DNA of 61,567 nt, the filler included. It is 10 parts of 10 records of this genome, joined end to end, with 100 filler letters (N's around TTAATTAATTAA, not from the genome) between each part and the next. Parts side by side here need not be neighbours in the genome. Positions count along the whole stretch, not along the records: positions 52,933 to 58,446 come from SRR7504441_542; 9 more parts are not named here. One strand, 5' to 3'. The position numbers and the translations under genes are program-made. Under the pieces are notes generated by a model. That model had not been told where the DNA came from. It did not search any database and saw nothing but the letters and a program-made list of their open reading frames with translations. Positions 24,473 to 58,240 of this stretch are shown here, in pieces. Numbering within the stretch: the stretch's first letter is position 1; the number at the start of each line of letters is the position of its first letter.

Positions 24473-24556
24473 CCCGGCTCGGCCACGCGCTACCCCGCCT
24501 GGGCCCCCGGCAGAGCCCCTGGCTCCAATCTGGGAGGGTGACCGTTGAGACCCTTG

Positions 24557-26866
24557 ATGCTGAGCGAGGCGGCTCCGGGGGAGGCGGTGGACGAGCTGGG
24601 GTTCGTGGTGGGCCGGAGCTGGGCCGAGTGGGAGGCGATCCAGCCGACCAGCCCGACCAGCCGCCGATGGGCCGACGACGGAGATCTGGCGGTGCTCGAG
24701 GGCGGACTGCCTGCCCAGATGCGCCAGGAGATCTGGCTGGTGACCTCGGGCGCCAGCGAGGCCCGGCAGGCCCGCGGGGGGGCTGATTACTACCGCGGGC
24801 TGGTGGAGCGGGCGGGGGAGGTCAGGGAGGAGACGGCGCGGCAGGTGGAGCTGGATCTGGGCCGGACGTTCTCGGAGGATAAGACCCACATCTCCACCCG
24901 GCAGGGCCAGGACAAGCTCCGCCGGGTGCTGCTGGCGTACGCGCTGCACGACCAGCTGGTCGGGTACTGCCAGTCGCTCAACTTTCTGGCCGGGCTGCTG
25001 CTCTGCGTGCTCGAGGAGGAGGCGGCCTTCTGGCTGCTCAGCTGCCTCTGCCGCAAGTGCTTCTACGGGTACCACGTGCCTTCGATGATCGGGATACGGG
25101 CCGACATGGCCGTCATGGACGAGCTGGTCGCGGCCCAACTGCCGGGGGTGGCCGAGCGGCTTGAGCGGCTGGACGTGCCGCTGCCGCTGATCGTGGCCCA
25201 GAACTTTATGCAGCTGTACATCACACTGCTCCCTTCGCACACGGTGCTCTGCCTGATGGACGCCATCTTCCTCAACCTTTCGCTGGTGGACGCCAAGGCC
25301 GACAGCAGCCCGGTGGCGCTCGGAATGCTCTCCGCCGTCACGCTGGCTCTGCTCCGGAGCATGCCAGAGCAGCTGTGGGGCAGGGACGCCTCCGATTTTA
25401 AGAATGGGTTCTCGCAACACATGGCCGACTTTCACGACAGCGACCGGCTGCTCCGGCTGGCCTCGGCCGAGCGGGCTCAGCTGGCCGGCGGGCTCAGCTG
25501 GGAGGAGCGGCTGGCGGAGATGAAGCGGCGGCATTGGGTCCAGCTGAGCGAGCAGGCTGAGAAGGAGCTGATGCTTTCAGAGCTTGGAGCCGTCCTGCTG
25601 CTAGAGCGCAAAATCGGGGGGCAGTCGGCCCTGTCGGCCAGCGCGCTGCACGCCCAGTTCATGGCGGCCAAGTCCGAGCTGGAGCTGCCCGACTGCTGGG
25701 CGCTCCCTCGGCAAAGGTTTGAAGCGATGCTCCAGTCCGTGGCGCCCGGCGAGCTCGACCCGGGGCTGGCAGACTCGCTGTTCGAGGTCTGCTCGACTGA
25801 CGGCCAGAGGGCAGATTTCAGGATGGTGGTGGCCACGCTGGGCTGCCTCGGGTCGGAGGGCACCCTGGACGAAAGGTTGCTGCTGCTGTTCCGGCTGTTC
25901 GACTTGGACGGGAACGGGGTGATCGATATGGGCGAGTTCACGTGCATTGTGGAGGTGCTGCACAGGCTGCAAAGGATCCCGGCCAACAAAGCCTGGATCG
26001 AGTTCCACGCCCAGGTGGCCTTCTCGCAGTTTGGGGCCGATCAGACCAGCGAGCTATCTTTCGAACACTTTAAGTCGGTGCTAGAAGCGATGCCGCTCGC
26101 CCGCCAGTTCCTAAAGATCCAGCCCAACCCACCAGGCAACGATGCTAGCCGCGGATGGCTCGACCGGGCCAAGCACAAGATTGCCGGGGCCTTCCCCTCA
26201 ATCTTCTCAAAGTGCAGCCCTCCGAGCTCGCCCAACGCCAAGGAGCTCAGTATCCGATCGTGCCGGTCGAGCACCGAGGTAGGATCGGCCCCGATGCCCG
26301 AGTTTGTGCTCAATCGCGACTGCTCGCTAGCCTTGGAGGCCCAGCGGAAGAAGGAGTTGATGGAGCGGGTCATCGGCAAGTGGCAGGCGACTTTGGAGAG
26401 CTGCTCACAGGAGCTGAGCGCCGGCTGGCGGAGGCTGAGGGAGCGGACTAGCCTCAGGGGCCAGCTCAAGCGGTTTGTGCGGATGAAGGCCGAGTTCGAG
26501 ACCAGGTGGCTCGAGCATCTTGCCGCCAACGGCCCTCTGGACATAACCCACTCGGTCGAGGTGGGTACGGTGCTTACTGGCATTGTGCTGCATCCTAGCA
26601 CCCTGTGCAGCAAGCTCGAACTCGCCAATTGCCTAGGAGTGCGGCAACATAGCGGGCACCTCCACCTGGAAGAGCTAGCGGCGTATTTCGCGCTCTGTGG
26701 CCATTCTTCCACAAACTCGAGATTCCCGCACGGCTTTACTCGCAATCGGCGCTTGATTGGGCTACTCGGCACCGGGCAGGTCGAGCATTTGTTTACTAAC
26801 GTGCCCGAACCCAAAGAGTGGATCACGATACCGTACAAGGGCCGCAAGAGCTTACGTCAAGAATAA
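24557..26866 (+). CDS. TBC-domain Rab GTPase-activating protein with EF-hands
   Basis: LPAQMRQEIW, VELDLGRTF (Arg finger), GYCQSLNFLAG (Gln finger), EEEAAFWLL; EF-hand DLDGNGVIDMGE; intronless. Confidence 0.92.
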   Translation: MLSEAAPGEAVDELGFVVGRSWAEWEAIQPTSPTSRRWADDGDLAVLEGGLPAQMRQEIWLVTSGASEARQARGGADYYRGLVERAGEVREETARQVELDLGRTFSEDKTHISTRQGQDKLRRVLLAYALHDQLVGYCQSLNFLAGLLLCVLEEEAAFWLLSCLCRKCFYGYHVPSMIGIRADMAVMDELVAAQLPGVAERLERLDVPLPLIVAQNFMQLYITLLPSHTVLCLMDAIFLNLSLVDAKADSSPVALGMLSAVTLALLRSMPEQLWGRDASDFKNGFSQHMADFHDSDRLLRLASAERAQLAGGLSWEERLAEMKRRHWVQLSEQAEKELMLSELGAVLLLERKIGGQSALSASALHAQFMAAKSELELPDCWALPRQRFEAMLQSVAPGELDPGLADSLFEVCSTDGQRADFRMVVATLGCLGSEGTLDERLLLLFRLFDLDGNGVIDMGEFTCIVEVLHRLQRIPANKAWIEFHAQVAFSQFGADQTSELSFEHFKSVLEAMPLARQFLKIQPNPPGNDASRGWLDRAKHKIAGAFPSIFSKCSPPSSPNAKELSIRSCRSSTEVGSAPMPEFVLNRDCSLALEAQRKKELMERVIGKWQATLESCSQELSAGWRRLRERTSLRGQLKRFVRMKAEFETRWLEHLAANGPLDITHSVEVGTVLTGIVLHPSTLCSKLELANCLGVRQHSGHLHLEELAAYFALCGHSSTNSRFPHGFTRNRRLIGLLGTGQVEHLFTNVPEPKEWITIPYKGRKSLRQE

Positions 26867-28717: not shown

Positions 28718-31700
28718 ATGGCAGCCTGGCTGGGGGGCGCGGTGGTGATGGGTTTCCTGGCCGTGGCGGCTGGTGGGCCGGTGCCGGATAGCGATCAGTA
28801 CATCATTAGCTCCACAAAGGAGCTCAGCTACTCCAGCCTGTCCCTGGTGCCTGGTCTTGCCTCGGGCCCTCCCTGAGCCATCACGCGGCAGGAAATCAAG
28901 GGCAAGGGCATGCAGTGCGGGAGCCCTATGCTGGGCGACTGCCTCAAGGCCGTGTTTGATCCCCCGCTGGCTCAGGCGGCCGCCGGGCGGGAGCTGCTGC
29001 CAGCCGGGGCCAGGGCCCTGACTACAGCTTGGGCCAAGGGCTGTTGGCCCCATCGCCAACGGGGTTCACTCTGGTGCTCAATATCGCCAACGGGGCCCAG
29101 TGCGCCGCCCGCCACCCCGCGGTCGAGCCCGGGCAGGTGGCGCGAATCCCCGGGGCCGCTCTACCTGACCGCGCTGGCCGACGACTACCCGGTGGTCCCT
29201 CCTGTGCAAGTGGCCACCATCGTCCCCGACCCCGAGGCCGCCTGGCCGCCCGCTCCCGGCCGAGCCGGCTCCAGGTGATCGCGGTGAGCAGCGTCCCGCC
29301 GTACAGCCGCACACTCGAGCTCAAGATCGGCCCGACGGGGCTGACAAGCCAGACAATCAGCCAGCGAACTGGGGACTGGCTCAGGCTGGTGCCTCCGGTG
29401 CCGATCCGGGCCGGGCGGGCTGAGGGCGGGGCAGCCGGAGTGCGCGTACCAGGTGTCGGTGGGCTCGAGCGACTCGGTGCTGGTGCTCAGCCGGACCGAC
29501 GACCAGCCGTGGAGCAGCACAGGCGAGAGCACAAGCATCATGATCGAGCAGATAGACACCGGCACCGGGCTGGTGAGACTCGAGCCGGGCGCACTGAGCC
29601 TCGGGCCAGGTTAACTTCGCCCAGGACACGCTGATAGCGGTGATCGAGCCGCCCGGTCGGATCACTGTGCTGGCGGCGCCAGGGCTGGCGGTGCCGAGGA
29701 ACCAGCCACGGATCACAATCGGCGGCACCGGGTTCGGGACGAGCTCGGCCGAGATCAGGTTCAGCTTCAACCTGCCGCTGGTGCTCGGAGAGGACTACAA
29801 CGTGCTATCGATATCTGAGCTGCAGACCGAGGCCACGCTCGAGCTCCGGCCGGGCAAGACCTGGGGCAAGGCGGCCAGGGTGCCGCTGCAGGTGACGTCG
29901 GTCCAAGTCGGTCCGAGCGCAAAGCCAGCCAGCGTGCTGTTCAGCCCTGCTCTGACTGTTGGGTTCATCATCGAGGCCAATGCGAGCGTTGGGCTCAGTG
30001 TGTTCAGCAGCCCAGCCGTGCCCCTTCTGGCAGCAAATGCCGACACTCTGCAGGTGCACGGCAACGGATTCGGGGACGACGAGACAACGCTGACAGTGCA
30101 ACTTGGGCCGGATCTGGTGCTTGGTGAGGACTTCAGAGTGGATTCAGTTAGCGAACAGATGCTGGTGCTCCGTCGAGTCACAGGCAAGACGTGGGGCCCT
30201 GCAGCCACCACAATCCGACTCGCCCAAGTGGACGGTTGCCCTGTTGGCTGTCCGGCCCCGATCGGGATCAAGCTTGCCTCGGTGCTGCCTGCGGTGACGG
30301 TCACTGCCAGCGAGAGCAGCCGATCGCGCTTCAACCCGGAGCTGCTGATCTACGGCTCCGGATTCGGGCCAGACCCGACCCAAACCAGCCTGCAGTTCAA
30401 GCCTGAGATGGCTGCCGGTAGTTACACCATCATGGCTGTCTCAGACACCCAAATCAAGTGTACCATTATGTCAGGCCAGCAGTGGCCTGAAGGCAAGCTC
30501 GAAGTGGTGGCGGTCAATCCGTCTGGTTACGGCACAGTGACCTTCGATGCACCGATCTCGGTGGCAACAAACGTCGACCCAACAAACGTCGACCCACAAC
30601 AAGATGCTGCTGGGATCACAGAGAGCTCACGAGAGCTCTCAGTTGATTCTGAGTGGCTTTCCATCACAGGATACGGGTTCGGCGAAAATCTGGCCGTTGT
30701 GAGCATTACATTCGAGCCCGACATCTCATCACAACTGTACTACATCCGGGTAGCTAGCCCGTATCTTCTCCAGCTTCAACGAAACTTCACGTCTGGAAAC
30801 GAACCTTGGCCGAACGGCGAGCTGGCCATTAAAACGATCGAGATAAATGGGATTATAACAGACTTTGACCCTGTAGTGAAGGTTGCAACACTGGTGAGCA
30901 AGAAGCTTGAAATAGCTGGCTCCACTTACAAGGTAGCGGCCGATGTACCCGTTCTCAATCTCCAAGGAGCTAACATATGTCCTGATGGCCTCAGTCTCAA
31001 ATTTTCACCGCCACTTTATGAAGGCTCCGACTACACATTCGGCCGCATCACGAATGAATCAGTCGAGCTGCATTTGGTAGATGGCCACTTCTGGATCGAA
31101 GAGCAAAAAACGGCGCCGCCGGGAGGTATTGATCCATACAAGCGGCCGATGCTGCCTCTCGCAGTTACCCGAATCAGTTGCAAAGAGGCGCTTGGAGTGT
31201 CCAGCCTGTCTACAACGGTGTTTGATATCTCGGCTGGCGGGACAATTGGTATTGTGCCGAATCCTACCAATGCGGTCTACACAAATGAGGCAACGCTCAC
31301 CATATTTGGTGCGAGGTCTGTATTGTGTGCTTGGACTTGCTTGAGGCTGACTGTGCGATTGGCAGTTTTGGGAATGCTCCTGAATCGGTCAACATCAAGC
31401 TTTCAACTGTGGCTCCATATGTAGTTAGCGCATGCACTCCCACGAAGCTGGAGCTGACTTTGGTTCATTCCTCCGACACTTGGCACGGGCCAAATGGCAA
31501 CCGGACAGTCTATGTCACCGACTTGAGCGTGGACGAAGTTGGCACCGTCAACTCTCAACACCCGATTATTGCTACGCTTTCTGACCCGCCTGTTGTCCGC
31601 GAATCCCACAAGACTTTGGCGATGCATGCTAGATCCTTGGTGATAGAAGGTATTGCAACATCTAGCCTCTCGTGTGCAACGTGGGTTGAGAAATTGTGTT

Positions 31701-34700
31701 GTAGGTGAAGGCTTTGATGCTGATCTCGCGCTCAAATTCAAACCTGAGTTAATCTTGGGCTTCGATTACGAAGTGGCATCACTGAACAGCACATACATTG
31801 AGCTATCGCTCATCAATCAACGGGCGTGGCGCAGTGATGGCTACGCCGGTGTTCTGATAGTCTCTCAGATCGAACAGGGCTCATTTGCAAGAGTTGAGCG
31901 CACAGTCGCTCGGATTGTTCCTAGTCCACAAATCATTACATCAACAACACGACTTGTATCGACGGGGCCTGTGCTTCAGATCCATGGACTAGGACTGGGT
32001 TCTGATGTTCGCGATGTCAGGCTGGCGTTCTCGCCTCCTTTGAATGCTGGTGACTACACGATTTCGGCCCTAGATGCTGGGAACGACGCAGCTGGGGTGT
32101 TTTCCATTATGACATTGGAGCTTGCTGCTGGCAAGGAGTGGCGTTCGGACCCTGGTCCTCTCATATTGACAGAAGTCGAGATCGGAGCTCTTGGAACTGT
32201 TTCAATGAGTACTCAGATCGTCGCAGTTGTAGGATCTTCAGAGTTTTATGTCAATGAGAACTTTGCCGAGGTCAATCCAAATGCAGCGACAATTACAATC
32301 ACAGGCTCTGGCTTGGCGGCGGGATCAGAGGGGTCACTTCGACTTCAGTTTGATGCAGAAGAACCTGCTTGGGGTCTTGGGGACACCTATACTATTCTTG
32401 CGCGAAATGATACTTATATCACCCTTCAGCTGCAGGCCGAACAGAAGTGGTATGCCCCCACAGGAGCCGGGAATCCTGCTGATTGGTCAATGGTCGTACG
32501 ACTGCAGAACATCTCATTCGACTCAGGTGAAACTATGATAGATGCAAGAAATGTGGCTATTGCAACGCTGAGAGCTCAGGTTGTCGAGGTCCAGGGCGCC
32601 GAAGCTGAGGTCCCAAGCACGTTTCCTTACCTGTTTGTGACAATCAAGCCACGTACATTCACTGCATGCTTAGATCCCGCACTAGTCGATTTGACTTTCG
32701 CAAATGGGAAGCGGGGGGGCGGCGAGGACCCGGATTACAAGATAATAGACATTTCTGACCCGCCAGGTCAAAGTGTGGGAGGCATCAAGGTCCTGACTCT
32801 CAGACTTCAACCTGACAAGAGCTGGGGTAACCCAACTGAGACGCTCGAAGTTACGGAGATTGCTTGCAAGGGTGCAGGCAGGGTGCCTGCAACTAAATCA
32901 GGCCGTATTGCAGTTGCCAAGATTGTTGGTCCCGAAGTGTGGTCATTGAGTGAATCAGCCACGATTGCTGAACGAAAGCGCACCATTGGAACCAATGGAG
33001 GCCAGCTCAGTGTAACTGCGAGGGAGCTGCACATTGTTGGGAGTGGATTCGGAACCAATCCCGCGGCTATTACTGCCATGGGCATCAAGATCGAGGATTA
33101 TCTGGCATTCGAAACCGATTATCAAGTCAAGGCCGTCGAAAATAATATACTCACGCTTGAGCTGTTATCTAGCGACAAGGCCTGGGATCCATCGTGGTGG
33201 GATTCATCCACTGGGCAACAGAAGTATCGCTCTGTACCTCTCCTGATAGACTCGGTCAAGATAAGTGGAACGGAACAGATGGGAACCGAGGTCAAGATTG
33301 CTGAACTGATGCAGGGTGTCATTGTGACTCCCAGTACGCTAAAAGTTAGTCTCACAGCTCCGATCATAACCCTTGTGGGTTACAACTTGGGTGCATTTGC
33401 AACTGGTAGCCTCAAGTTCGAATTCTCATCTGGTGCTCAACAAGGACAAGATTTTACCATTGCCGAATGTCATGGCTGCACCCAGTGCGACCCAGCGTTG
33501 GAATGCCCAGCGGGGACACTGGTACTGGCTCTGGTCAAAGGTCAGCAGTGGGCAACAGATGTCTCGTCCCACCTCGTCATCAATGGGACCAGTGGCCTGT
33601 ATGGGCTTAGTGCTCATCAGGTTTCAGTGGGTGACTTGGTATCGTCATCAACAGTGTATGCTACCCCAGCGGCGTCCAATCCTGTTTTCCAAAGTGCGGC
33701 TGACCTGATAATTGATGGAAACGGATTCGGGCACGACCTAGGGGAAGTGACCGTCAGTTTGGAAGGTCTGTCGGGCTATGTTGTGACTGCAGTGACTCAC
33801 AACCGGATCATAATCAGCCGTGGGTCCCTGTCAAGCTGGGGCACAGTGGGTGCTGTGTTGACTATCACGAAAATTACAATCTCTTCGACTGTCACCTCTA
33901 TGAACACACTGGTAGGTATTGTCACAACTGACCCTGTTGTGGCCCCATCAAGCACTCGCACGTTCATGGGATCATCCAGTCTCCAAATACAAATCAGCGG
34001 CCTCTGTAGCACCGATGCGACCTGCGCAGTTGTGGCCACCTCGCCTTCGATGGGGCTGTTCCTGGAATTCGACCCACCTCTTGTGCAAGGCGCTGATTAC
34101 TACATCTCAACTGTGAGCACCAGTCAAGTCACGCTAGGCCTCTTCAGACAAGCTAGGTGGTGGTCTGAGGTTGAGCTCGATCACGCAGTGGCTTCATTTG
34201 CACTTACAGTCAAGCGCGCTGGCTTGGTTACAAGCTCTGTTCAAAATAGCGTGCAAGTGGCAGTCCTCTCACACGATGGGCTGAAAGCGCAAGCATGCCT
34301 GAATCCTCTGGGCAAGTTTGCTTCGACGCTGGACATTCGAGGCAGCTTCGATCTCCCTCAGTGGGACGTCACTAAAGGCTCCTCCTCGGGTCTAACTCTT
34401 CAATTCGAGCCAGACCTCGTCGAGGGAGAAGACTACGAGCTCCAGGCGGTGCAATCAGATGTCATGCGGCTCGCTCTACTGTCCACAAAAGCGTGGAATA
34501 TGCAAAGCATGGAACCAGATACCACGCCTGGGTCATTCAAAGCGTTAACTCTTGTGTCGCTGACATCAAGCGAAGGTCAGCTCATGCAGAATCAACCGGT
34601 GGCCAGTGTGGTGTCTCCAAACACATTTTACATCCAGCCACGGGCCTTGTTCAAAGAGTACTTGAATGTACGCTCTTCGAATTCAATTGAGATCATAGGA

Positions 34701-37700
34701 AACGGGCTATGTGGCGAAGCCTATTCCTCGACATATGAATGCACCGGCTCCTTGGAGTTTGCATTTTCTTCTGGACTAGTTGAGAATACCGACTACAAAC
34801 TACAGGCTGGATTCAGCAACACTCGGGTGGTCTTGCTTCTACAAGACAGCTTTTGGTTGCCTTCTGGGGAGACCGGCTTCTTATTCCTTGATGCAGTAAA
34901 ACTCATAGGGTTAGCAGATATCAATGCCGGCTGGGCAACAACAAATGCCACAGTGGCATCGATAGTAGATGACCCCGTCTTCCAGGCGAGCAATGCCGGA
35001 CTGTTTTCCAAGGCAACGTCGCTCACAATCTCAGCCACAGGACTCACGACATCCTCCAAGCAGCTGTCCCCCCTTTTCGAAGAAATGTCTTCACTCGTTC
35101 TCACCTTTGATACTGACTCGAGCGTAGTGCTTGAGGTTGGTACGGACTACATCATCCAAACTCCAACAGAGAGCGGCGTCACCCTGTCTCTCGTGGCAGG
35201 CAGAAAATGGTCATTTCCACGCAAGACCCTCAAGCTGACCAGTATAAACCTGCACGGCATGGGGGTAATGACGCGCTTCGGTACACAGGCAGGTGCCCTG
35301 CCTGTCGCCTCGATTGTGGAAGACGCTACTGTGACAACATCCCGAGCCGAGCTTGCTTCAAATGCCGACCAGCTGGTTCTTAGGGGGAGAAACCTTGCGA
35401 ATTCGCTTCAGCTTACGTTTGTTCCCAGCTTGACAAAAGGTAAGGAATATGAGTATGATCGACAAGCAAGTACAGATTCAAAACTGGTACTCACGCTTCA
35501 GGCTGGCTACGAGTGGGTTAGTAGTCCCTACGGGAGCCTGGTCATCGCAGAAATCTCGAGCGATGCAGGGACTCTCCTGGCAACCACCACAGTAAGCAAT
35601 GTGGTCGAAGGGCCCAGCGTTGATGCCAATGACAACGATCTTGGTGCTGAGTTTCCTTATGTGTATATTTACGGTAGCGGCTTTGGATATAAGGCAGGTC
35701 AATTTCAAGTGACAAAACTAACTTTCGACCCAGTCCTTGTTCGTGATGTAGACTACAACATCACTGACCTTTTTGACAGCAGAATCACCCTGAGTCTCAA
35801 ACCTGGCAGGAAGTGGTTTGGCAATGACAACAATCAATTAGTTCTTGTTGACATGGAGATCGCCGGAACCGGTTCTACGGAGGCTAAACAGCTTGGGACC
35901 GGCACCGTCACGATAAATAAGCCGCTGGGAACACTTGTAGATCCTCTAAAGGTATACATCCTGGAGAACGATGTCCCTGTGTCTGCACTCGTAGCGAAAA
36001 TTATTGTGTACGGCAATGGCTTCAGGCCATCTGGAGCGGACCTCGCTGCTGCCACGTGTGAGGAGTATCTTGAGACTCCATTGCTTCAGACGTGACTTGC
36101 TAGCTCAGATTTGATGTCTGAGAATTGCTGTGCTGCAGGTCGCCTCCTCTCGAGCAGGGATCCAACGACCATCCAGGAGACTTCGTCCTCAACGTTCTGA
36201 GTAACAATGAAATGGAATTAATCCTGCAGCCAGGAAAGACCTGGAGGGAGGGAAGCGGTGAACTGCGCGCCGCATCTATACAGGTCTGCCAGGACGGAGG
36301 AACCTATCAAATAGATGCGACACTGGCGTATATCTCTACCCCTTGTATGGGCTCGGCCTGTACCTTGCTCCAGGATAGAGTGCCACACCGAGATTTTGTT
36401 GGAGCAGGCGAGACACAGATATATAACTACACCGTGTGCAGCCGGACCTCGTCCGTGCTCACCCTGACCGCCACTCCCCTGGCTGGATTCTTCACTGTCT
36501 ATGTATCCAGGCTGGGTCTACCAAATCCTAATACCGCAGACAACTCAATGAACTCAAATGAACTCAATGGGCAACCATTGGTGTTTGATATCTCTTTCCC
36601 GGAGAACATGCTTGGACAACAAATGTATATCGCTGTGGTAGGAAGCCAGGATGCCGATTCAGAGTACATCCTCACCATGGCATCACAAGAGTTTCAGCTT
36701 GTGCCTACATCGGAGCCGTTCGAGTTCACGCTTGGTCCCTCCAAAGCCGAGCCGCCTTGTTCAAGCACGTTTTTCTTCGATCTTGCAACCCCAGCAAATC
36801 TCCTGTATGTCAATACTGAGCTTGAGGTGTACCGTGTAAACGGTATCCCAATGGAAAGTACAACGCCATATCTGAACCTGGAGATGCCATCGAATAGCAC
36901 GCTACGAGGTCAGGGGAATCTTGAGACCTCTTCTGGTGAGGGGCCTCTGAGGTCTGGGCGATACAAGTTGGTGATCGATGCAGTCGACACGGTGAAGCTA
37001 AAGATTTTTGTCTCGCCTGTCCAAGTCGTGGAGTACAACACACAAACAGAATCATTTGTTTATTCGAGCGCATATCCTACAGTGCTCCGTATAGATCCTC
37101 CGTGTGGCTTCAGCGGCACCCTCAACATCACCTTTGACATCTCGGTAGCAGCATCAGAGGATGAGGCTGGTGTTGATTTCTACCTTTCACGCAGTCCGAA
37201 ATTGACAGACCTCATCATGCGTACTGAGGAAATGTGGGACCTGGGATTCTCGACACCTCCCACCGCATTAGAGCCCGGCCTCAATTTGGCAACAGCTGGA
37301 GTCGTGAACCGCACTGCCCGAATCGACTACTATGAACTTGGGAAAGGTCCAGAGTACTATATAATGGCAGGATTCCGCAGCACAGCTTCGCAGCCCACCT
37401 GCGATCGTGCATACCCTTTCTCCCTTAGAATTCATACGCATGATGCATTTTTATGTCATCTAGAGCCATTGGAGGGCCCCGATGAAGGTGGTACGCAAGT
37501 GTTGCTCGAAGGTCGCAACTTTGTGCATGGCCAAACCAGCTGCAGATTTGGACGCCGTGTCACAAAAAGGACATTTGCGCCCGGGCACAACGAAGTACTA
37601 AATCCGCTCTGGGGGACTGACGACGATGTGGAATTCGGCAGCGTAGAGGCGACCGTCTTGAACAGCACCCATGCCATCTGCATCTCGCCATACGCGTGCC

Positions 37701-39648
37701 TGAATGGTACTGCTAAGAACTATAACGCCGAGACCGGTGAATGCAGCGAGCCACCTCCGGCTGGGTGGAAACGCAACCTCGATGTGGCCATTTCGAATCA
37801 CCCAGGAGCAGCCCGTATGCCACTCACTGAGTTTGTTGACCGTACCTACTCGAATGTGCTCCCATTCCAGTACTTTTCGAATCCAGAGTTCGTAAGTGTG
37901 GTGCCCACTGCGGGTCCTATGTCCGGTGGGACTAGACTGCAACTTTTCATCAAGGGTGCATCTGAGAATGTACAGAACTTCAGCTCAATCGGATGCATCT
38001 TTGGTTCGCAATATGTTGAAGCAGCTCTCATCAATCTAGAAACAATTGTCTGCACTAGCCCACAAGTTGACCGGGAGACAATCGTGCCCCTGCGGCTTTC
38101 CATAAATGGTCAGATCGCAGCACAAGGCAGCGGCGGGCTTACCTTCTACTGGTTCGACGACAGCTTCCTGGGGACAATAACTTCCATTTTCCCCCAGGGT
38201 GTCGATGGCAGTGGTGGCACACTTATCACTGTTATTGGGCACAATTTTCGCCAGTACGAACCAAACTTGGTTCAATGCCTGTTCGGGACTAATCAGATCG
38301 TAGCCGAAGATGCTACTGAGAACGCGGTGGTCTGTCGGCTACCACCCATCGCTTTAAGCCAACTCTCGGCATCGGCACAACTTCCAGTACGCGTGCAGAT
38401 AAATGGCCAGGACCTATCGCGCACATCAGCCCATCTAACTGTGTATAATGCTGGTACCATCTCACAGTTTGATTATATCACTCCCACCTTCGGACCTATC
38501 ACAGGTGGTACAGCAGTGACTCTGGTAGGGTCTTCATTTCCCAATGTTGGGGGGATGCTCTGTCGACTCAGGTACAAGGACCAGTTGTGGGGAACAATAA
38601 ATGATACCGGGATCACCATGTCGGCATCTTACATTAGCAGCTCAAAGCTTGAATGCACAACCCCAGCAATGCCAGAGCTGAGCATCAGCAAGCGAGAATA
38701 CACAATTGGTCTCAGCCTAAATGGAGGGTACGATTGGTTTGTCGAGATGGTACCGGAGATGGAGGGTACCAAAGGTTTCCCGCTTCTCTCGCCAAACCTG
38801 ACATTCTTTTACAAACAAGACATAGCTATCACCGAGACCCCATTCCCAAACTCGGGTCCAATCGCCGGAGGCGTTTTGGTCCGTCCCCTTTATCCCTGCA
38901 TGCCTTATACTGAGTATGGCTTGCCACAGGTAACGATCACTGGCTCCGGATTCGGGGTGCCCGACAAAGCTGGCGTCTTGGGGCCTGGAGGGACTCCACT
39001 GTGTCGATTTGGTTCGTCAGTGGTTGAAGCGGTCTCCACTATCGAGGTCAACAAAACAGCCGGCAGTCCAAACGAGGTCGTTTCGGAGCGGATGACATGC
39101 AGATCGCCTGCTGGACAGGCTGGGAAAGTGTCACTAGAAGTTGCTGTGAACGCACAACACTTTTCAGCATCGGGCTATCAATTTGAGTATGCCAAGCCTG
39201 TGGGATACTCTCGCGCGATTATCAATGCCAGCGCGACATTTGACACACTGCGGCCGACTGATTTTGACACTCTCCTGATGGATGTGTTCCTAGAGTCCAT
39301 GTTGCGAGCAGTTCCAAGCCTGCCACGTGATGCTGTCAGCCCGTCGGCTGTCAGCCAGAGTACAGCTCAGAGTGTACCTACTGGTAACACCAAGCCAGAC
39401 CTCACACAGTATGACTATACTGCCAGTCAACGGCGCGTTCCCGAAGCAGCCGGGGCAACTGTCTGGTTCCAGATCAATTACTTCGGCATGCCATCCGACC
39501 AGGTAATAGAGATATTATATGCTGCTTTCAACGGCACTGATGGCTTCAGCTCCACATTCAAGCAGGAGGCCATTCGTCAAGGCAAACTCGGACTCATCGT
39601 GAATAGCCCGATCGATCTGGTCCAACTCGAGATCGCTTTGGTAGCTGG
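28718..39648 (+). CDS. Giant secreted/surface protein (>3,400 aa, 3'-truncated): many ~100-aa TIG-like repeats followed by five canonical IPT/TIG domains
   Basis: Signal peptide MAAWLGGAVVMGFLAVAAG; recurring IxGxG[FL]G..FxPxLxxGxDY..LxLxxGKxW; IPT motifs PLEGPDEGGT, PTAGPMSGGT, PQGVDGSGGT, PTFGPITGGT, PNSGPIAGG; consecutive ORFs joined by short introns. Confidence 0.85.
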
Positions 39649-39748
39649 NNNNNNNNNNNNNNNNNNNNNNNNNNNNNNNNNNNNNNNNNNNNTTAATTAA
39701 TTAANNNNNNNNNNNNNNNNNNNNNNNNNNNNNNNNNNNNNNNNNNNN
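39649..39748. other. Artificial contig-joining spacer
   Basis: N/TTAATTAATTAA/N, 100 nt. Confidence 0.98.
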
Positions 39749-52832: not shown

Positions 52833-52932
52833 NNNNNNNNNNNNNNNNNNNNNNNNNNNNNNNNNNNNNNNNNNNNTTAATTAATTAANNNNNNNNNNNN
52901 NNNNNNNNNNNNNNNNNNNNNNNNNNNNNNNN
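52833..52932. other. Artificial contig-joining spacer
   Basis: N/TTAATTAATTAA/N, 100 nt. Confidence 0.98.
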
Positions 52933-53247
52933 GGGGCAGCATCTGTCCCCACGGCCGGGGGCACAGAGCACAAGAGAAGGTCCCACCGATCAATAACAGC
53001 ATTTTCAGAAAATCGAGCTAAATGCTGCCAGGAAATCGAGGGAAAACAAGTACGTGCACTATACGTGCACAACGACTACACAACGGCAACATGTACGAGT
53101 ACCTAGCAAGAGAGAAAAGTGCGCAGTCAACAACGCCAATGCTATTATACTGAATTACAATTGTGTATACCTAGTACACATGATTGATTGAACAGTACTT
53201 CTAGGAATTTAACAAGAGATTTAACAATTGATCATAAAAATTTTTGT

Positions 53248-54891
53248 TTAGTGAGTCGGTCGCTTTTTCCACTCGTTCCACTCTTCTAACGACAAGTGCC
53301 CGTCTTGGTTGCGGTCGATTGCGTCAAAAGCTCGCTCGTCTCCGTTAGTCCGCTGCTTCCACTCTTCACGCGAGAGTCTGCCATCGCCGTCTTGGTCAAA
53401 GTCAATAAACTCTGCTCTCCACTTGCGAAACCAAAAGCTCTCCACCACACATCGAGGCAACAGCCACAGCAGCAACACGTGAAACCCACCACCTACTTGA
53501 AGCTGGCGAGCCTCCAAACTGTGCCCCCATTTTCTCTGTACCCAAGTGCCCTCCTGGAGCAGCTTTTGCCGTCTGTTGGTGACCTGCAAAAGCCCCCAAT
53601 GCGAGTAAACCCACACAACCAGCAGCAGCCAGCCGACGTAGGTATCAACCGTAGCCTGGGCCAGGAAATAAGCAGCCTGCGCAGCCTGGAGATGCCTGAT
53701 AATGACTTGGACAGTGCGCCACCAGACCAGCTTCAGATATGAACAGGACTGCAAAGAAATTAGCACACATCAAATACACGTCCAGGAAGGTGAGGTAGCT
53801 GCCCCACCGGTGAGCTCTCTCAGGCCGCCAGTCACGGGAGCACGGGCAAGCGCTCGGACACAGAATATTTAATCCCAACCAACGCCAGCAGCACTCCAGC
53901 CGCGTACGAGGTGCGACCGCTCACGTCTTCGATAGGCGTGCTGAACTGCAACACGGCCCAGTCAGCCGAGGTGGCTGCTATGGGCTGTGCCTGTACAAAC
54001 AGGGTGCTGGTGATGAGGCAGGCCAGCACCAGGACGTTCCACAGCCAGTAAGCCGGCTCCCGGGCCACAAACAGTCGAAACACTATCATATTATACTCCT
54101 TGCCCTCTCCGGACTCTCGCGGGTCTGTGCTGGAGAAGTCTACATCGAGCACTGGGACACCGTGCAGGTAGAATGGCCGCCAGTGGACGATGGTGCTGGT
54201 GTCCATGCTGAGCTTGCCTATGGGCTTGCCTTGCTCTACCAGGACCCGCTTGCCTCTAAATCGGAGCTTGCAAGTCTCATCCGAAACTAGTATCACGTGT
54301 AGCTTTTGATCATCCAACGGAAAATTCTCCAGCTGCCCCGAGCTCGGCCTCGAGCCCCGTGGCAGCGCACCTCAAATTTCTCGGCGAAGGTGGCGTCGAA
54401 AGTCTGCTGCCACTGGACTGTGTCCCCTTTGCGGATTTGGGCTGGTTTGATGGTCGATCCGAGGGACTGGATCCCGATCTGGTTTCGCCACTCCAGGAAC
54501 GGTCGCCATGGGTCGTTATCTTCGGCGGCCTGCCAGAGGAGCTGCAGGAAGAACACCATCTGCCCTCCGATCATTCGGCCGGAGCCCAGCAATGCACCTC
54601 GAAGTGTTGGTCCGCGCTGACGATCGACCTCAGATGCGTCACTGTCATGGCCAGCTCGACCTCCCGGGCGGCCGCAGCCGGCTGGGGGCGTGCTATCGCA
54701 GCCGACTGGGGGCGTGCTATCGCAGCCGGCTGCCTGGGCACGCCCAGTCGCGCCGGGCTGCCTCGTGGTTGCACTGCCGAGCTGCGACGCTCGGGCGGGG
54801 GCGGGCTGGGTTGCTGTGCCGCCCGGCGTGGCCGCTTCGGACTGCCGGACTCGGCATCCGGATCCCCCGCAACCCGCTTCCTGAGCCGCAT
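53248..54891 (-). CDS. Cys-less (Pro-loop) pentameric ligand-gated ion channel with a C-terminal EF-hand pair, 5 introns
   Basis: Spliced WRPFLEWRN, FELENFPLDDQKL (Pro-loop), pre-M1 VAREPAYWLWN, M2 GRTSYAAGVLLALVGIK, LPVLPYLTFLDVY (M2-M3), M4 YVGWLLLVVWVY, and EF-hands DQDGDGRLSREE and DRNQDGHLSLEE. Confidence 0.88.
54681..54732. repeat. 24-nt coding tandem repeat (8-aa unit AAIARPQx) in the channel N-terminus
   Basis: ctggggcgtgctatcgcagccg occurs twice at a 24-nt period. Confidence 0.8.
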
Positions 54892-54939
54892 CGCGAGTGC
54901 CGTTAGACTGCGCCGGGCCCCGGGTAGGAGGGTCGCAAA

Positions 54940-56689
54940 ATGGCCCGAGTGCGGCCGCTGCTGCTGCTGCTGCTGTGCTTATTTGGGGCGCCCTGTGCCG
55001 GGCTGCCCACGCCATCGGGAGCAAAGAATGTGCTGCTGGTCGTCGTGGACGATCTGCGGCCGACCGACGCCTTGGGTCACACCCCGAGCATCGATCGGCT
55101 GGCGGCCAGTGGGCTCTCCTTCGACCGGGCCTACTGCAACTACGCCTTCTGCAGCCCGTCGCGCTCGTCGTTCATGAGCGGCCGGCGGCCTGACACCACC
55201 CGGGCCTGGGAGTTCAAGGACTCGTTCCGAGAGGCCGGCCCGCGTTGGACGGCGCTGCCTGAGTACTTTAAACGATTCGGGTACATCACGCTCGGGTCGG
55301 GCAAACTCTACCACCCGTCCGGGTACGGCGGAGACAACAAGGGCCTGCCCCCCAACGATTACCCGGTGCCAGACCGGCTGGCTACGCCTCACCCCGGGGC
55401 AGCGCTCGTGGAGTCCGGAGTGGCCTTACTTTGGTAACCCCGGCGGACCTGGCGGGTGCCAGCAAGGCCCGTTCGAGCCCTACGCATGCCGCAACCCAGA
55501 CGGGCTGCCCGGGCGTAGTGGGCACTCGGCGAACTGCAGCTTCGGCTCCCAGATCTGCGAGGTGGCAGTGGATAAGGATGCCGCGGTTCTTGAGGATCAA
55601 CTTATCAGAGACAGCTGCATCCGGCAACTCAGACTAGCTGCGGTGGAGACTGGGCGCCGAGCGAGCAAATACTATAACAAACCGTTCTTTGTGGGCTGCG
55701 GGCTGCATAAGCCGCATGTTCCCTGGCATGCCCCTGCCGAGTTTTTCGATTTAATGCCCGACCCTTCAGTCCTCCCGCTGCCGAGGAAAGCGCTCCAGCA
55801 GGCGCCGATTGGGATGCCCAAAGTCGCCTGGCACCCGCCAATTAACGTGGAGCCCTCCAAGTTCACGGCGGCATTCAACGCAACCAACAGCAGCTGCCTA
55901 CAGGACTCGACCGCCCAGCAGTACCGCCGGGCGTACTACGCTTCTGTCGCGTATCAGGACTACAATATCGGCCGGGTGCTGGCCGAGCTGGATGCACTCA
56001 ACCAGACCGAACGTACTGTGGTGGTCTTGTTTGGGGATCACGGATGGCATCTCGGTGAGCAGGACATCTGGGCCAAAATGACAAACTTTGAACTCGGCCT
56101 TCGAGTGCCGCTCATAATTCGAGCCCCTTGGAAGCCCGGCGCGGCCGGCAAGCGCTCCAGCGAGCTAGCCGAACTGGTGGACGTTTATCCGACGCTGGTA
56201 GAGCTCGCTGGGCTGCCACCGCCGGTCTCTGTAGGAGAGCAGCTGAATGGAACCTCTCTGGCTCCGCTGTTTGATGCGCCGAGCGAGTGCAGCGCTCCTA
56301 AGCGGCCGTGCCGTGAAGGCTACATGAGGAGCCAGCCGGCACTCAAGCCGGCAGCGTTTGCCCAGTTTGCCAAGACGTGTGACGGTTATGCCTCGGCGTG
56401 TGCGGTTGAGGATATCACTTTTGTTGGGGATCAGTTTGAACGCAACCAGACCAAGCTGATGGGATATAGCGTCAGAGTGGACCTGTGGCGCTACACGGCA
56501 TGGTTTGGGTTTGACGGCCGAAATGTCAAAGTGCAGACCGATCGGGTTATTGGACGAGAATTGTATGAACACACAGCAGGTGTTTCGAGCGAGCCTCGAG
56601 AAGAGGAGGTGAACCTGGTTGGCGAGCCGGGCCTGGCCGGTGTGGTGGAGCAGCTTCATGCGAAAGTGCTAGATTACATTCGATTGTAG
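54940..56689 (+). CDS. Secreted sulfatase, iduronate-2-sulfatase-like
   Basis: Signal peptide; NVLLVVVDDLRP, CSPSR (formylglycine motif), GKLYHP, GLHKPHVPW, GDHGWHLGE..WAKMTNFE; one 37-nt intron. Confidence 0.92.
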
Positions 56690-56767
56690 ACTTGCCGAGC
56701 CTGTTTTCGTTACGACTGTACAGCAAGGTAAAAGTCCGTTATAACAGTGATTGACCTGCAAGGAAGA

Positions 56768-58240
56768 ATGCGGCGGCTCAGCAGGGCGTCGCCGTCGGTC
56801 CGGCGGCTAGGGTCGGTCCAATGCCGGCTGTCGTCGTACTCGGCAGTGACCGCCGCGGACCGGGAGTTCTTCCGATCGGCGCTGGACCCGGCCGACGTGA
56901 TCGAGGCCCCGGGCGAGCTGGGCAAGTACAACGAGGACTGGATGGGCAAGTACCACGGCCGGTCCACCCTGGCGCTCCGGCCGCGGAGCACCGAGCAGGT
57001 GGCGGCGGTGCTGGCGCACTGCCACGCGCGCAGGCTGCCGGTGGTCCCGCAGGGAGGGAACACCGGGCTGGTGGGCGGGAGCGTGCCGGTGGGCGAGGAG
57101 ATCGTGCTCACGCTTTCCGGGATGAACCAGATACTCGAGTTTGACGAGTTCGGCGGGTCGGTGAGCTGTCAGGCCGGCACAGTGCTCCAGACGCTGCAGG
57201 AGTCGGCCTGGGAGCGAGGGTTTACCATGCCTCTCGATCTCGGGGCCAAGGGTTCGTGCCAAATTGGGGGGAACGTGGCCACAAACGCCGGCGGGCTGAG
57301 GTACCTGAGGTACGGGTCGCTGCACGGGTCAGTGCTTGGCCTGGAGGTAGTGCTTGCCGATGGCACTGTGCTGGACACAATGTCCACTCTGCGGAAGGAC
57401 AACACTGGATATGACCTCAAGCAGTTGTTTATAGGCTCGGAGGGCACACTCGGCGTGATCACCGGGGTGTCCATTGCGCTGCCGGTGGCTCCGGAGTCGG
57501 TCCAACTGGCTTGCTTGGCTCTGGAGAGCTACGAGGACGTGCTCCGCGTGTTCCGGGCGGCCAACAGGCAGCTGGGGGAGGTATTGAGTGCTGTCGAGTT
57601 CTGGGACCAGCCAGCGCTCGCACTCACGCTCGGGCAGCTGGAGGTGCGCAATCCGCTCTCGTCGACTGAATCGCCGTTCTACATGCTGATAGAGACGTCG
57701 GGCTCGAACAGCGATCATGACGCTGAGAAGCTGTCGCAGTTCCTCGAGACGATGATGGAAGAAGGCCAAGTGCAGGACGGCACGCTGGCGCAGGACGGCA
57801 CTCAGATGGCTGGGCTCTGGCGCGTGCGAGAGGGCATCACCGAGGCGCTCGGCAAGGCGGGCGCGGTGTATAAGTACGACATTTCGCTCCCGTTGCCACA
57901 GCTGTATGAGCTTGTCGAGGAGACCCGCGCAAGGCTGGCACCACTAGGGGCGACTACAGTAGCGTTTGGGCACATCGGCGACGGTAACGTGCACTTGAAC
58001 GTCTCAACTCCGAAGCCGTCCCCTGAGGTGTTGGCTGCACTGGAGCCCTGGGTGTTTGAATGGACGCAACAGCACCGGGGCTCGATCTCAGCTGAGCACG
58101 GTGTGGGCGTCATGAAGCCAAAATATCTTCACCTCGTCAAGTCGCCAGCCGCGCTAACGCTTATGCGCAAACTTAAGACGACGCTCGATCCTCACGCCAT
58201 CCTCAACCCTCACAAGGTGCTCGAGCCTCTTGGCGCATGA
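56768..58240 (+). CDS. D2HGDH: D-2-hydroxyglutarate dehydrogenase (FAD-linked, probably mitochondrial)
   Basis: PQGGNTGLVGGSVP, PLDLGAKGSCQIGGNVATNAGG, RKDNTGYDLKQLFIGSEGTLG, GHIGDGNVHLN, GSISAEHGVG; Arg/Ser-rich presequence. Confidence 0.95.
   Translation: MRRLSRASPSVRRLGSVQCRLSSYSAVTAADREFFRSALDPADVIEAPGELGKYNEDWMGKYHGRSTLALRPRSTEQVAAVLAHCHARRLPVVPQGGNTGLVGGSVPVGEEIVLTLSGMNQILEFDEFGGSVSCQAGTVLQTLQESAWERGFTMPLDLGAKGSCQIGGNVATNAGGLRYLRYGSLHGSVLGLEVVLADGTVLDTMSTLRKDNTGYDLKQLFIGSEGTLGVITGVSIALPVAPESVQLACLALESYEDVLRVFRAANRQLGEVLSAVEFWDQPALALTLGQLEVRNPLSSTESPFYMLIETSGSNSDHDAEKLSQFLETMMEEGQVQDGTLAQDGTQMAGLWRVREGITEALGKAGAVYKYDISLPLPQLYELVEETRARLAPLGATTVAFGHIGDGNVHLNVSTPKPSPEVLAALEPWVFEWTQQHRGSISAEHGVGVMKPKYLHLVKSPAALTLMRKLKTTLDPHAILNPHKVLEPLGA

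Follow-up and report, generated by a model that had tools for sequence, protein, structure and literature searches.

A gene at positions 53248–54891 on the minus strand of the stretch of DNA analysed here (the window; 61 567 nucleotides, ten parts of ten records of one genome joined end to end, of which positions 52 933–58 446 come from SRR7504441_542) raises the question of which side of the membrane the sensor domain of its product faces. To our knowledge, no studied pentameric ligand-gated channel has a cytosolic sensor domain; all face the outside or the periplasm. The original prediction described a channel subunit with neither signal peptide nor cysteine pair, carrying two EF-hands, whose ligand-binding domain (LBD) and EF-hands may both face the cytosol. 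Read from its sequence, the gene encodes a Cys-less pentameric ligand-gated channel subunit of a rare, mostly marine clade without signal peptide, and we consider it fairly probable that this leaderless subunit holds both its LBD and its EF-hands in the cytosol and is tuned by Ca2+. We infer the orientation, the Ca2+ control and the ion selectivity from the features described below, and the predicted pentamer from family membership.

The coding region runs from an ATG at 54891 to a stop codon at 53248–53250, and the coordinates first given for the gene are borne out by the assembly of its exons into one open frame. The parts of the gene are listed here, P numbers denoting related proteins that are described below.

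53248–54891, minus strand: channel gene, full coding region in 5 exons; 497 residues, or 482 without the optional intron.
54598–54891, minus strand: exon 1, leader and start of the LBD.
54560–54597, minus strand: intron 1, 38 nt, GTGCAT..GGGCAG; junction colinear with P0002.
54371–54559, minus strand: exon 2, LBD from β2 to β6.
54333–54370, minus strand: intron 2, 38 nt, GTGCGC..GGGCAG; junction colinear with P0012 and P0002.
53836–54332, minus strand: exon 3, Pro-loop, remaining LBD, first membrane helix (M1), M1–M2 loop and M2.
53946–53990, minus strand: optional in-frame intron (45 nt, GC..AG) or lineage-specific 15-residue insert of the M1–M2 loop.
53799–53835, minus strand: intron 3, 37 nt, GTGACT..GGGCAG; junction colinear with P0001.
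53723–53798, minus strand: exon 4, end of the M2–M3 linker and M3 (M3 at 53723–53785).
53686–53722, minus strand: intron 4, 37 nt, GTGGCG..CTCCAG; spacing colinear with P0031.
53248–53685, minus strand: exon 5, 15-residue M3–M4 loop, M4, tail, EF-hands and stop codon.

The four sure introns (38, 38, 37 and 37 nt) all have GTG..CAG ends, their removal results in one open frame and the four junctions align without gaps with intron-free relatives. Five introns had been claimed; these four stand, and the fifth is a doubtful 45-nt candidate. Its size and its GC donor are unlike those of the other introns, so that the 15-residue stretch may be a genuine insert; the stretch is missing from all seven aligned relatives, and its excision would give the 482-residue form. 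A 51-nt GT..AG alternative at this place was rejected, as it would delete two conserved residues; the GC..AG version therefore fits the relatives better, and neither version has RNA support. In a tblastn search of the protein model against the window, this locus alone was matched. The adjoining sulfatase gene needs an intron of the same kind (55366–55402, 37 nt, GTGCCAGA..CGGGGCAG), indicating that ultra-short introns are a habit of the genome and not an artefact of the model. The locus is a real intron-bearing protist gene. The five introns in the two adjacent genes are all 37–38 nt in length with GTG..CAG ends, four of them ending in GGGCAG, which is an unusually tight size class for a GC-rich nuclear genome.

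The assignment to the pentameric channel superfamily is carried by the following segments and by the relatives.

54598–54666, minus strand: start of the LBD up to where exon 1 ends (β1, conserved R-E-V motif), from alignment with relatives.
54306–54323, minus strand: Pro-loop core F-P-L-D-D-Q without flanking cysteine pair, from direct reading and family alignment.
53994–54050, minus strand: M1, from hydropathy, alignment and PDB sequence matches.
53859–53912, minus strand: M2 pore helix with 0' Arg, 9' Leu, −4' Asp and 20' Glu, from alignment.
53581–53640, minus strand: M4, from hydropathy and alignment.
53521–53544, minus strand: conserved post-M4 motif W-x-x-R-K-W-G-H, or W-x-x-R-x-W-G-H, in a K/R-rich tail, shared by P0002, P0003, P0031, P0016 and P0011.

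The Pro-loop core follows the pattern (F/Y)-P-x-D-x-Q between β6 and β7, and its F-P is conserved in 17 of the 17 family rows that cover the region. The two positions of the Cys-loop disulfide, 13 residues apart, are occupied by Glu and Leu; the whole LBD contains one cysteine and 0 glycosylation sequons, counts that are too weak to use as evidence of topology. The β-sandwich is followed by M1–M4, with an M2–M3 linker of the form L-P..P-Y, with 0' Arg and 9' Leu retained and with an M3–M4 loop of 15 residues. Exon 3, run as the query of an exhaustive HMMER search over 1.84 billion representatives, returned 25 proteins at E<=1e-3, rare and of protist or marine origin, with P0001 (61% identity, E 3e-29), P0007 (56%) and P0002 (41%, E 4.5e-14) as the best matches; the source name of P0003 is Telonema subtile. 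At 25 representatives the family is small and therefore tractable. Of 20 relatives scanned with Pfam, 14 exceed the cut-off for Neur_chan_memb (PF02932) and 3 that for Neur_chan_LBD (PF02931). The AlphaFold model of P0002 (pLDDT 76, pTM 0.70) consists of a β-sandwich and four helices and matches GABA-A β3, GluCl and GlyR with E about 1e-19 over ~338 columns and a target-normalised TM-score of up to 0.76 (9fg4_B: E 1.1e-19, TM-score 0.75), a fold match that was made on this relative, 41% identical to exon 3, and not on the window protein. Exon 3 itself has 13 weak sequence matches in the PDB; 12 are acetylcholine receptor (AChR) or ELIC chains aligned on the pre-M1 region and M1, and the thirteenth was set aside as a chance match. 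Word-based homologue searches with exon 3 and with a family profile gave nothing or only three proteins, a metagenome locus scan with a third family alignment found no relative and a scan with the single protein P0026 found one locus, L001. The Cys-less channel with an FPLD Pro-loop and M1–M4 that had been predicted is thus supported by the reading of the loop, by the residues at the cysteine positions, by the relatives and by the fold of P0002. Acidic side chains occupy −4' and 20' of the pore, the −2' Pro is missing and in most relatives −1' is Asp as well. Acidic pore rings without −2' Pro resemble those of cation-selective channels, and with low confidence the pore may be cation-selective.

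The first evidence on orientation comes from the N-terminus, for which three segments matter.

54667–54891, minus strand: N-terminal leader of 75 residues, basic, Pro/Ala/Arg-rich, without hydrophobic core (hydropathy scan).
54892–54939, no strand: spacer of 48 nt between the divergent ATGs.
54940–55002, plus strand: sulfatase signal peptide, an internal control showing that the genome encodes ordinary signal peptides.

The leader contains 16 Ala, 15 Pro and 13 Arg and has a net charge of +11; its maximal 10-residue hydropathy is 0.58, compared with 3.15 for the adjoining sulfatase signal peptide, in agreement with the predicted basic, Pro-rich N-terminus without a hydrophobic leader. The distance to the sulfatase ATG is likewise as described (ATGs at 54940 and 54891), and an in-frame stop codon lies upstream of the channel ATG. 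With the two ATGs arranged head to head so closely, the promoters or 5' untranslated regions (UTRs) of the channel and sulfatase genes must overlap or be extremely short. The signal peptide that belongs to the canonical superfamily topology was not found in the hydropathy scan, nor was a hydrophobic leader found in any of the 12 Met-started family members that contain β1. Three of the 12 have fewer than 10 residues before β1, and the highest 10-residue hydropathy among the rest is 2.02. The 12 were counted from 14 aligned rows containing β1, leaving out P0002 (adapter-like start) and P0011 (5'-partial). The N-terminal residues of P0002 and P0003 are presumably translated sequencing adapter, and such adapter-like starts make the 'complete ORF' (open reading frame) labels of both unreliable. 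L001 is a 2060-nt contig with a poly(A) end, in which an in-frame TGA precedes the ATG by 12 nt and the protein reads M-S and then β1, the LBD starting at residue 3. The absence of a leader is, as judged from these sequences, a family trait. A 24-nt tandem repeat in 2.5 copies (54673–54732) codes for part of the leader, with the repeated peptide P-Q-(P/S)-A-A-I-A-R.

The net charge of the leader and its Arg/Ala/Ser-rich composition would also suit an organelle presequence, placing the channel in a mitochondrial or plastid membrane. We consider this improbable, given the density of prolines, the four acidic residues (three within residues 1–14), the tandem repeat and the relatives, which have either no leader (P0004 and P0008) or an acidic one (P0002 and P0011). 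Plastid import, moreover, itself needs a signal peptide if the lineage is haptophyte-like.

The distribution of charge gives the second line of evidence. When the family is pooled, the segment before M1 carries a net charge of +15.5 per 100 residues, that between M1 and M2 −8.1, that between M2 and M3 +3.9, that between M3 and M4 −7.0 and the 30 residues that follow M4 +11.1. Of 18 members with M4 and tail, 17 have the greater density of Lys and Arg on the LBD side (four rows lacking either were skipped), with pooled values of 0.167 and 0.087 for the two sides. Under the positive-inside rule the K/R-rich side is cytosolic, which would place the LBD side in the cytosol; in canonical channels the K/R-rich M3–M4 loop marks the side opposite the LBD. 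By the rules of membrane insertion, a leaderless folded N-terminal domain and basic pre-M1 residues direct M1 to insert with its N-terminus inside, so that the LBD, the M2–M3 linker and the post-M4 tail are likely to be cytosolic.

The tail beyond M4 contains the predicted Ca2+-binding elements and a hydrophobic stretch.

53362–53397, minus strand: Ca2+-binding loop of EF-hand 1, 12 residues, canonical (Pfam and direct reading).
53281–53316, minus strand: Ca2+-binding loop of EF-hand 2, 12 residues, canonical (Pfam and direct reading).
53455–53484, minus strand: FHVLLLWLLP, candidate fifth span or interfacial helix (hydropathy and AlphaFold).

The presence of two canonical EF-hands after M4, as predicted, is confirmed by the last exon, which scores above the cut-off with four Pfam families: PF13202 (47.6 bits, cut-off 25.9, E 8e-13), PF00036 (41.3 bits, cut-off 25.4), PF13405 (38.1, cut-off 25) and PF13499 (31.3, cut-off 30). 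Both loops match the canonical 12-residue pattern (D/N at 1, 3 and 5; G at 6; E at 12), and AlphaFold pairs the two hands through a short β-bridge. The two hands are predicted to bind Ca2+. An EF-hand also follows M4 in P0002 and P0003, without an intervening hydrophobic segment. Querying the ESM Atlas with the last exon produced no usable match. RNA-recognition motifs seen by eye in the tails of P0014, P0015, P0018, P0020 and P0024 have no support from Pfam (the best match, RRM_fung in P0020 only, scores 13.3 bits against a cut-off of 27) and were therefore dropped as evidence of a cytosolic tail. In P0031 and P0007, the closest relatives with a tail, a Cys-rich polybasic tail without EF-hands continues past the hydrophobic stretch; it may reflect read-through into an intron in a genomic contig or be a true alternative C-terminus.

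Contigs from three studies' RNA libraries match positions 53246–53605 exactly and without a joint; a single RNA-library sequence thus carries the latter half of M4, the tail with its hydrophobic stretch, the two EF-hands and the stop codon. The unbroken connection from M4 to the stop argues against EF-hands on a separate transcript, a possibility that the original prediction had raised against itself. The RNA data also bear on the possibility that the locus is a decaying or untranslated gene copy, as might be suspected from the 15-residue M1–M2 insert, the loss of the M1 proline and the Gly at −1' of the pore helix. We regard this as very improbable: the frame is open over five exons with consistent splice signals, the last exon is covered by the exact contigs, the M1 proline is also missing in P0001 and P0031 and P0001 shares the Gly at −1'. 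Many 31-letter RNA contigs of high depth at 54950–54979 were discarded, as they sit on a CTG repeat and are no evidence of expression; the repeat encodes the sulfatase signal peptide's poly-Leu core. The 3' flank (53000–53250) is AT-rich, with 36–44% GC compared with about 55–75% within the gene. One contig from a poly(A) library stops 2 nt past the stop codon, at an A-run, which would fit either a very short 3' UTR of the channel gene or a mere break of the contig at the run. Farther downstream, 315 nt from the stop codon, two runs of N surround ttaattaattaa (52833–52932), which has the look of an assembly gap that contains a six-frame stop linker.

Several observations weigh against a cytosolic placement of both domains. 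The absence of leaders rests on a hydropathy scan, and only the N-terminus of L001 is verified on DNA, the other 11 being called ORFs. The counts of 12 of 12 leaderless members and 17 of 18 with the charge bias are not independent, since the sequences are kin; the charge figures were counted on members of this family only, and pre-M1 arginines are also present in canonical channels. Single exons of the window gene reach none of the Pfam channel models, a null result that is uninformative because the domains are split over exons but leaves the channel identity to relatives and motifs. RNA contigs are absent from 53606–54949, the part with the introns and the 5' end, so that the RNA check of the predicted mRNA holds for the last exon only and an upstream exon may still exist. 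EF-hands, finally, are not exclusively cytosolic, and FHVLLLWLLP with its flanks has a 19-residue hydropathy of 1.43, compared with 1.47 for M4, and in the AlphaFold model forms the first part of a 31-residue helix that leads directly into the first EF loop. From its M4-like hydropathy and this long helix, the stretch could span the membrane and put the EF-hands on the opposite side.

Two other topologies follow from a fifth span. In one, the LBD is still cytosolic and the EF-hands are external or luminal, reporting on Ca2+ outside the cell or in stores, in the manner of STIM1, whose luminal EF-hand senses store Ca2+. Besides the hydropathy and the continuous helix, the retention of a comparable stretch in the closest relative P0031 (hydropathy 1.74) and the K/R-rich loop between M4 and the stretch, as expected of a cytosolic loop, speak for this arrangement. 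However, the unbroken hydrophobic core is just about nine residues long and is followed by Pro-Arg, what remains of the helix reads as the helix entering EF-hand 1 and P0002 and P0003 keep an EF-hand without any hydrophobic segment, and we judge the arrangement unlikely. In the other, which is how all studied superfamily members are arranged, the LBD lies outside or in a lumen by way of a missed 5' exon or of leader-independent translocation, and the fifth span, compatible with the hydropathy, returns the EF-hands to the cytosol. The 5' end of this gene, lacking RNA evidence, leaves room for such an exon, but the sulfatase ATG lies just 48 nt upstream on the other strand with an in-frame stop before the channel ATG, and leaders are absent throughout the family, as verified on one full transcript. 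The K/R-rich loop after M4 would also lie outside, opposite to the charge bias, and the relatives that bear EF-hands have no fifth span. As it would need a leader that was missed and, in addition, an external K/R-rich loop, this topology is more unlikely still and the least likely of the three. The arrangement that we favour has FHVLLLWLLP as an interfacial or packed helix and the EF-hands in the cytosol. The predicted cytosolic location thus gains support for the LBD at the level of the family, by leader absence, L001 and charge, and is less certain for the EF-hands, given this stretch.

With LBD and EF-hands both cytosolic, the ~180-residue β-sandwich LBD would be left untranslocated in the cytosol and M1 would run outward across the membrane. 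The M1–M2 and M3–M4 loops, both short and acidic, would lie on the far side, extracellular or in an organelle lumen, and the long K/R-rich tail would return to the cytosol beside the interface between LBD and membrane. The EF-hand pair in the tail would then read a rise in cytosolic Ca2+, and the signal would be relayed through the conserved post-M4 W-G-H segment to the gating interface formed by the Pro-loop and the M2–M3 linker, tuning or opening a cation-selective-looking pore; gating or tuning by Ca2+ is a conjecture. We give about even chances to the wider proposal that a whole clade of protist pentameric channels is inside-out, with the domain that in animals binds neurotransmitters on the cell's exterior placed in the cytosol, and gated by an intracellular ligand or Ca2+. 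Such channels are possibly cation or Ca2+ release channels of endomembranes, in which case members bearing EF-hands, this gene included, would close a Ca2+ feedback loop. A cytosolic sensor would change what these channels sense (metabolites, second messengers or Ca2+), would mean that the fold tolerates the reducing cytosol and would amount to a new type of intracellularly gated channel in protist signalling.

[quoted passage not shown] (2016; PMC4795631), and Cys-less protist channels also appear in PMC11085791. The Pro-loop receptors of PMC4795631 resemble the product of this gene in lacking the cysteine pair, in having four membrane helices and in coming from marine protists. Unlike the present analysis, the main text of PMC4795631 does not treat topology or fused domains; it contains 0 occurrences of 'signal peptide', 'EF-hand', 'calcium', 'N-terminal' and 'C-terminal'. 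GABA-A β3, GluCl and GlyR, the best structural matches of P0002, share the M2–M3 L-P..Y and the 9' Leu. These anion-selective Cys-loop receptors have a signal peptide, a Cys-loop disulfide, a long cytosolic M3–M4 loop, a short extracellular C-terminus and a −2' Pro/−1' Ala filter, whereas this gene has none of these traits. GLIC, ELIC and DeCLIC share with it the absence of a cysteine pair and a very short M3–M4 loop, and share with the P0002 model the absence of an N-terminal helix ahead of β1; ELIC is also among the weak PDB sequence matches of exon 3. These channels are exported with a leader and have a periplasmic sensor domain; DeCLIC is modulated by Ca2+, and its extra domains are N-terminal and are not EF-hands. 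Plant TPC1 and polycystin-2 are tuned by their own cytosolic EF-hands, as proposed here, with unrelated folds and pores.

The original prediction knew of no characterised example and suggested a search for proteins combining Neur_chan_LBD with EF-hands. In full-text searches of the literature, no paper turned up that describes a sensor domain in the cytosol or a fusion with EF-hands for the pentameric channel superfamily, in keeping with the first point. The search for the pairing led to an ESM Atlas cluster of 83 eukaryotic members of about 675 residues, with Haptophyta as the commonest phylum, in which automatic annotation assigns Neur_chan_LBD to 99% and EF-hand families to 94–95% of members. 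The channel–EF-hand pairing is thus not unique and exists already in automatic annotation. The cluster has the same Pfam pairing as this gene and a feature score of 0.89 to P0002, and its members are at best distant relatives, since they are not among the 25 matches of the exhaustive search.

Other genes in the window include a single-exon D-2-hydroxyglutarate dehydrogenase (56732–58237, plus strand) with FAD_binding_4 and FAD-oxidase_C domains, whose best named relatives are from Diacronema lutheri (66% identity) and Pavlovales sp. (68%); these matches hint at a haptophyte-like lineage. A long ORF at 24542–26863 (plus strand), unrelated to the channel, combines a RabGAP-TBC domain (E 2e-37) with an EF-hand after it, making it a second EF-hand fusion in the window. 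Two adjacent long open frames of 1482 and 1192 residues (31647–36095 and 36122–39700, plus strand) are possibly one giant gene.

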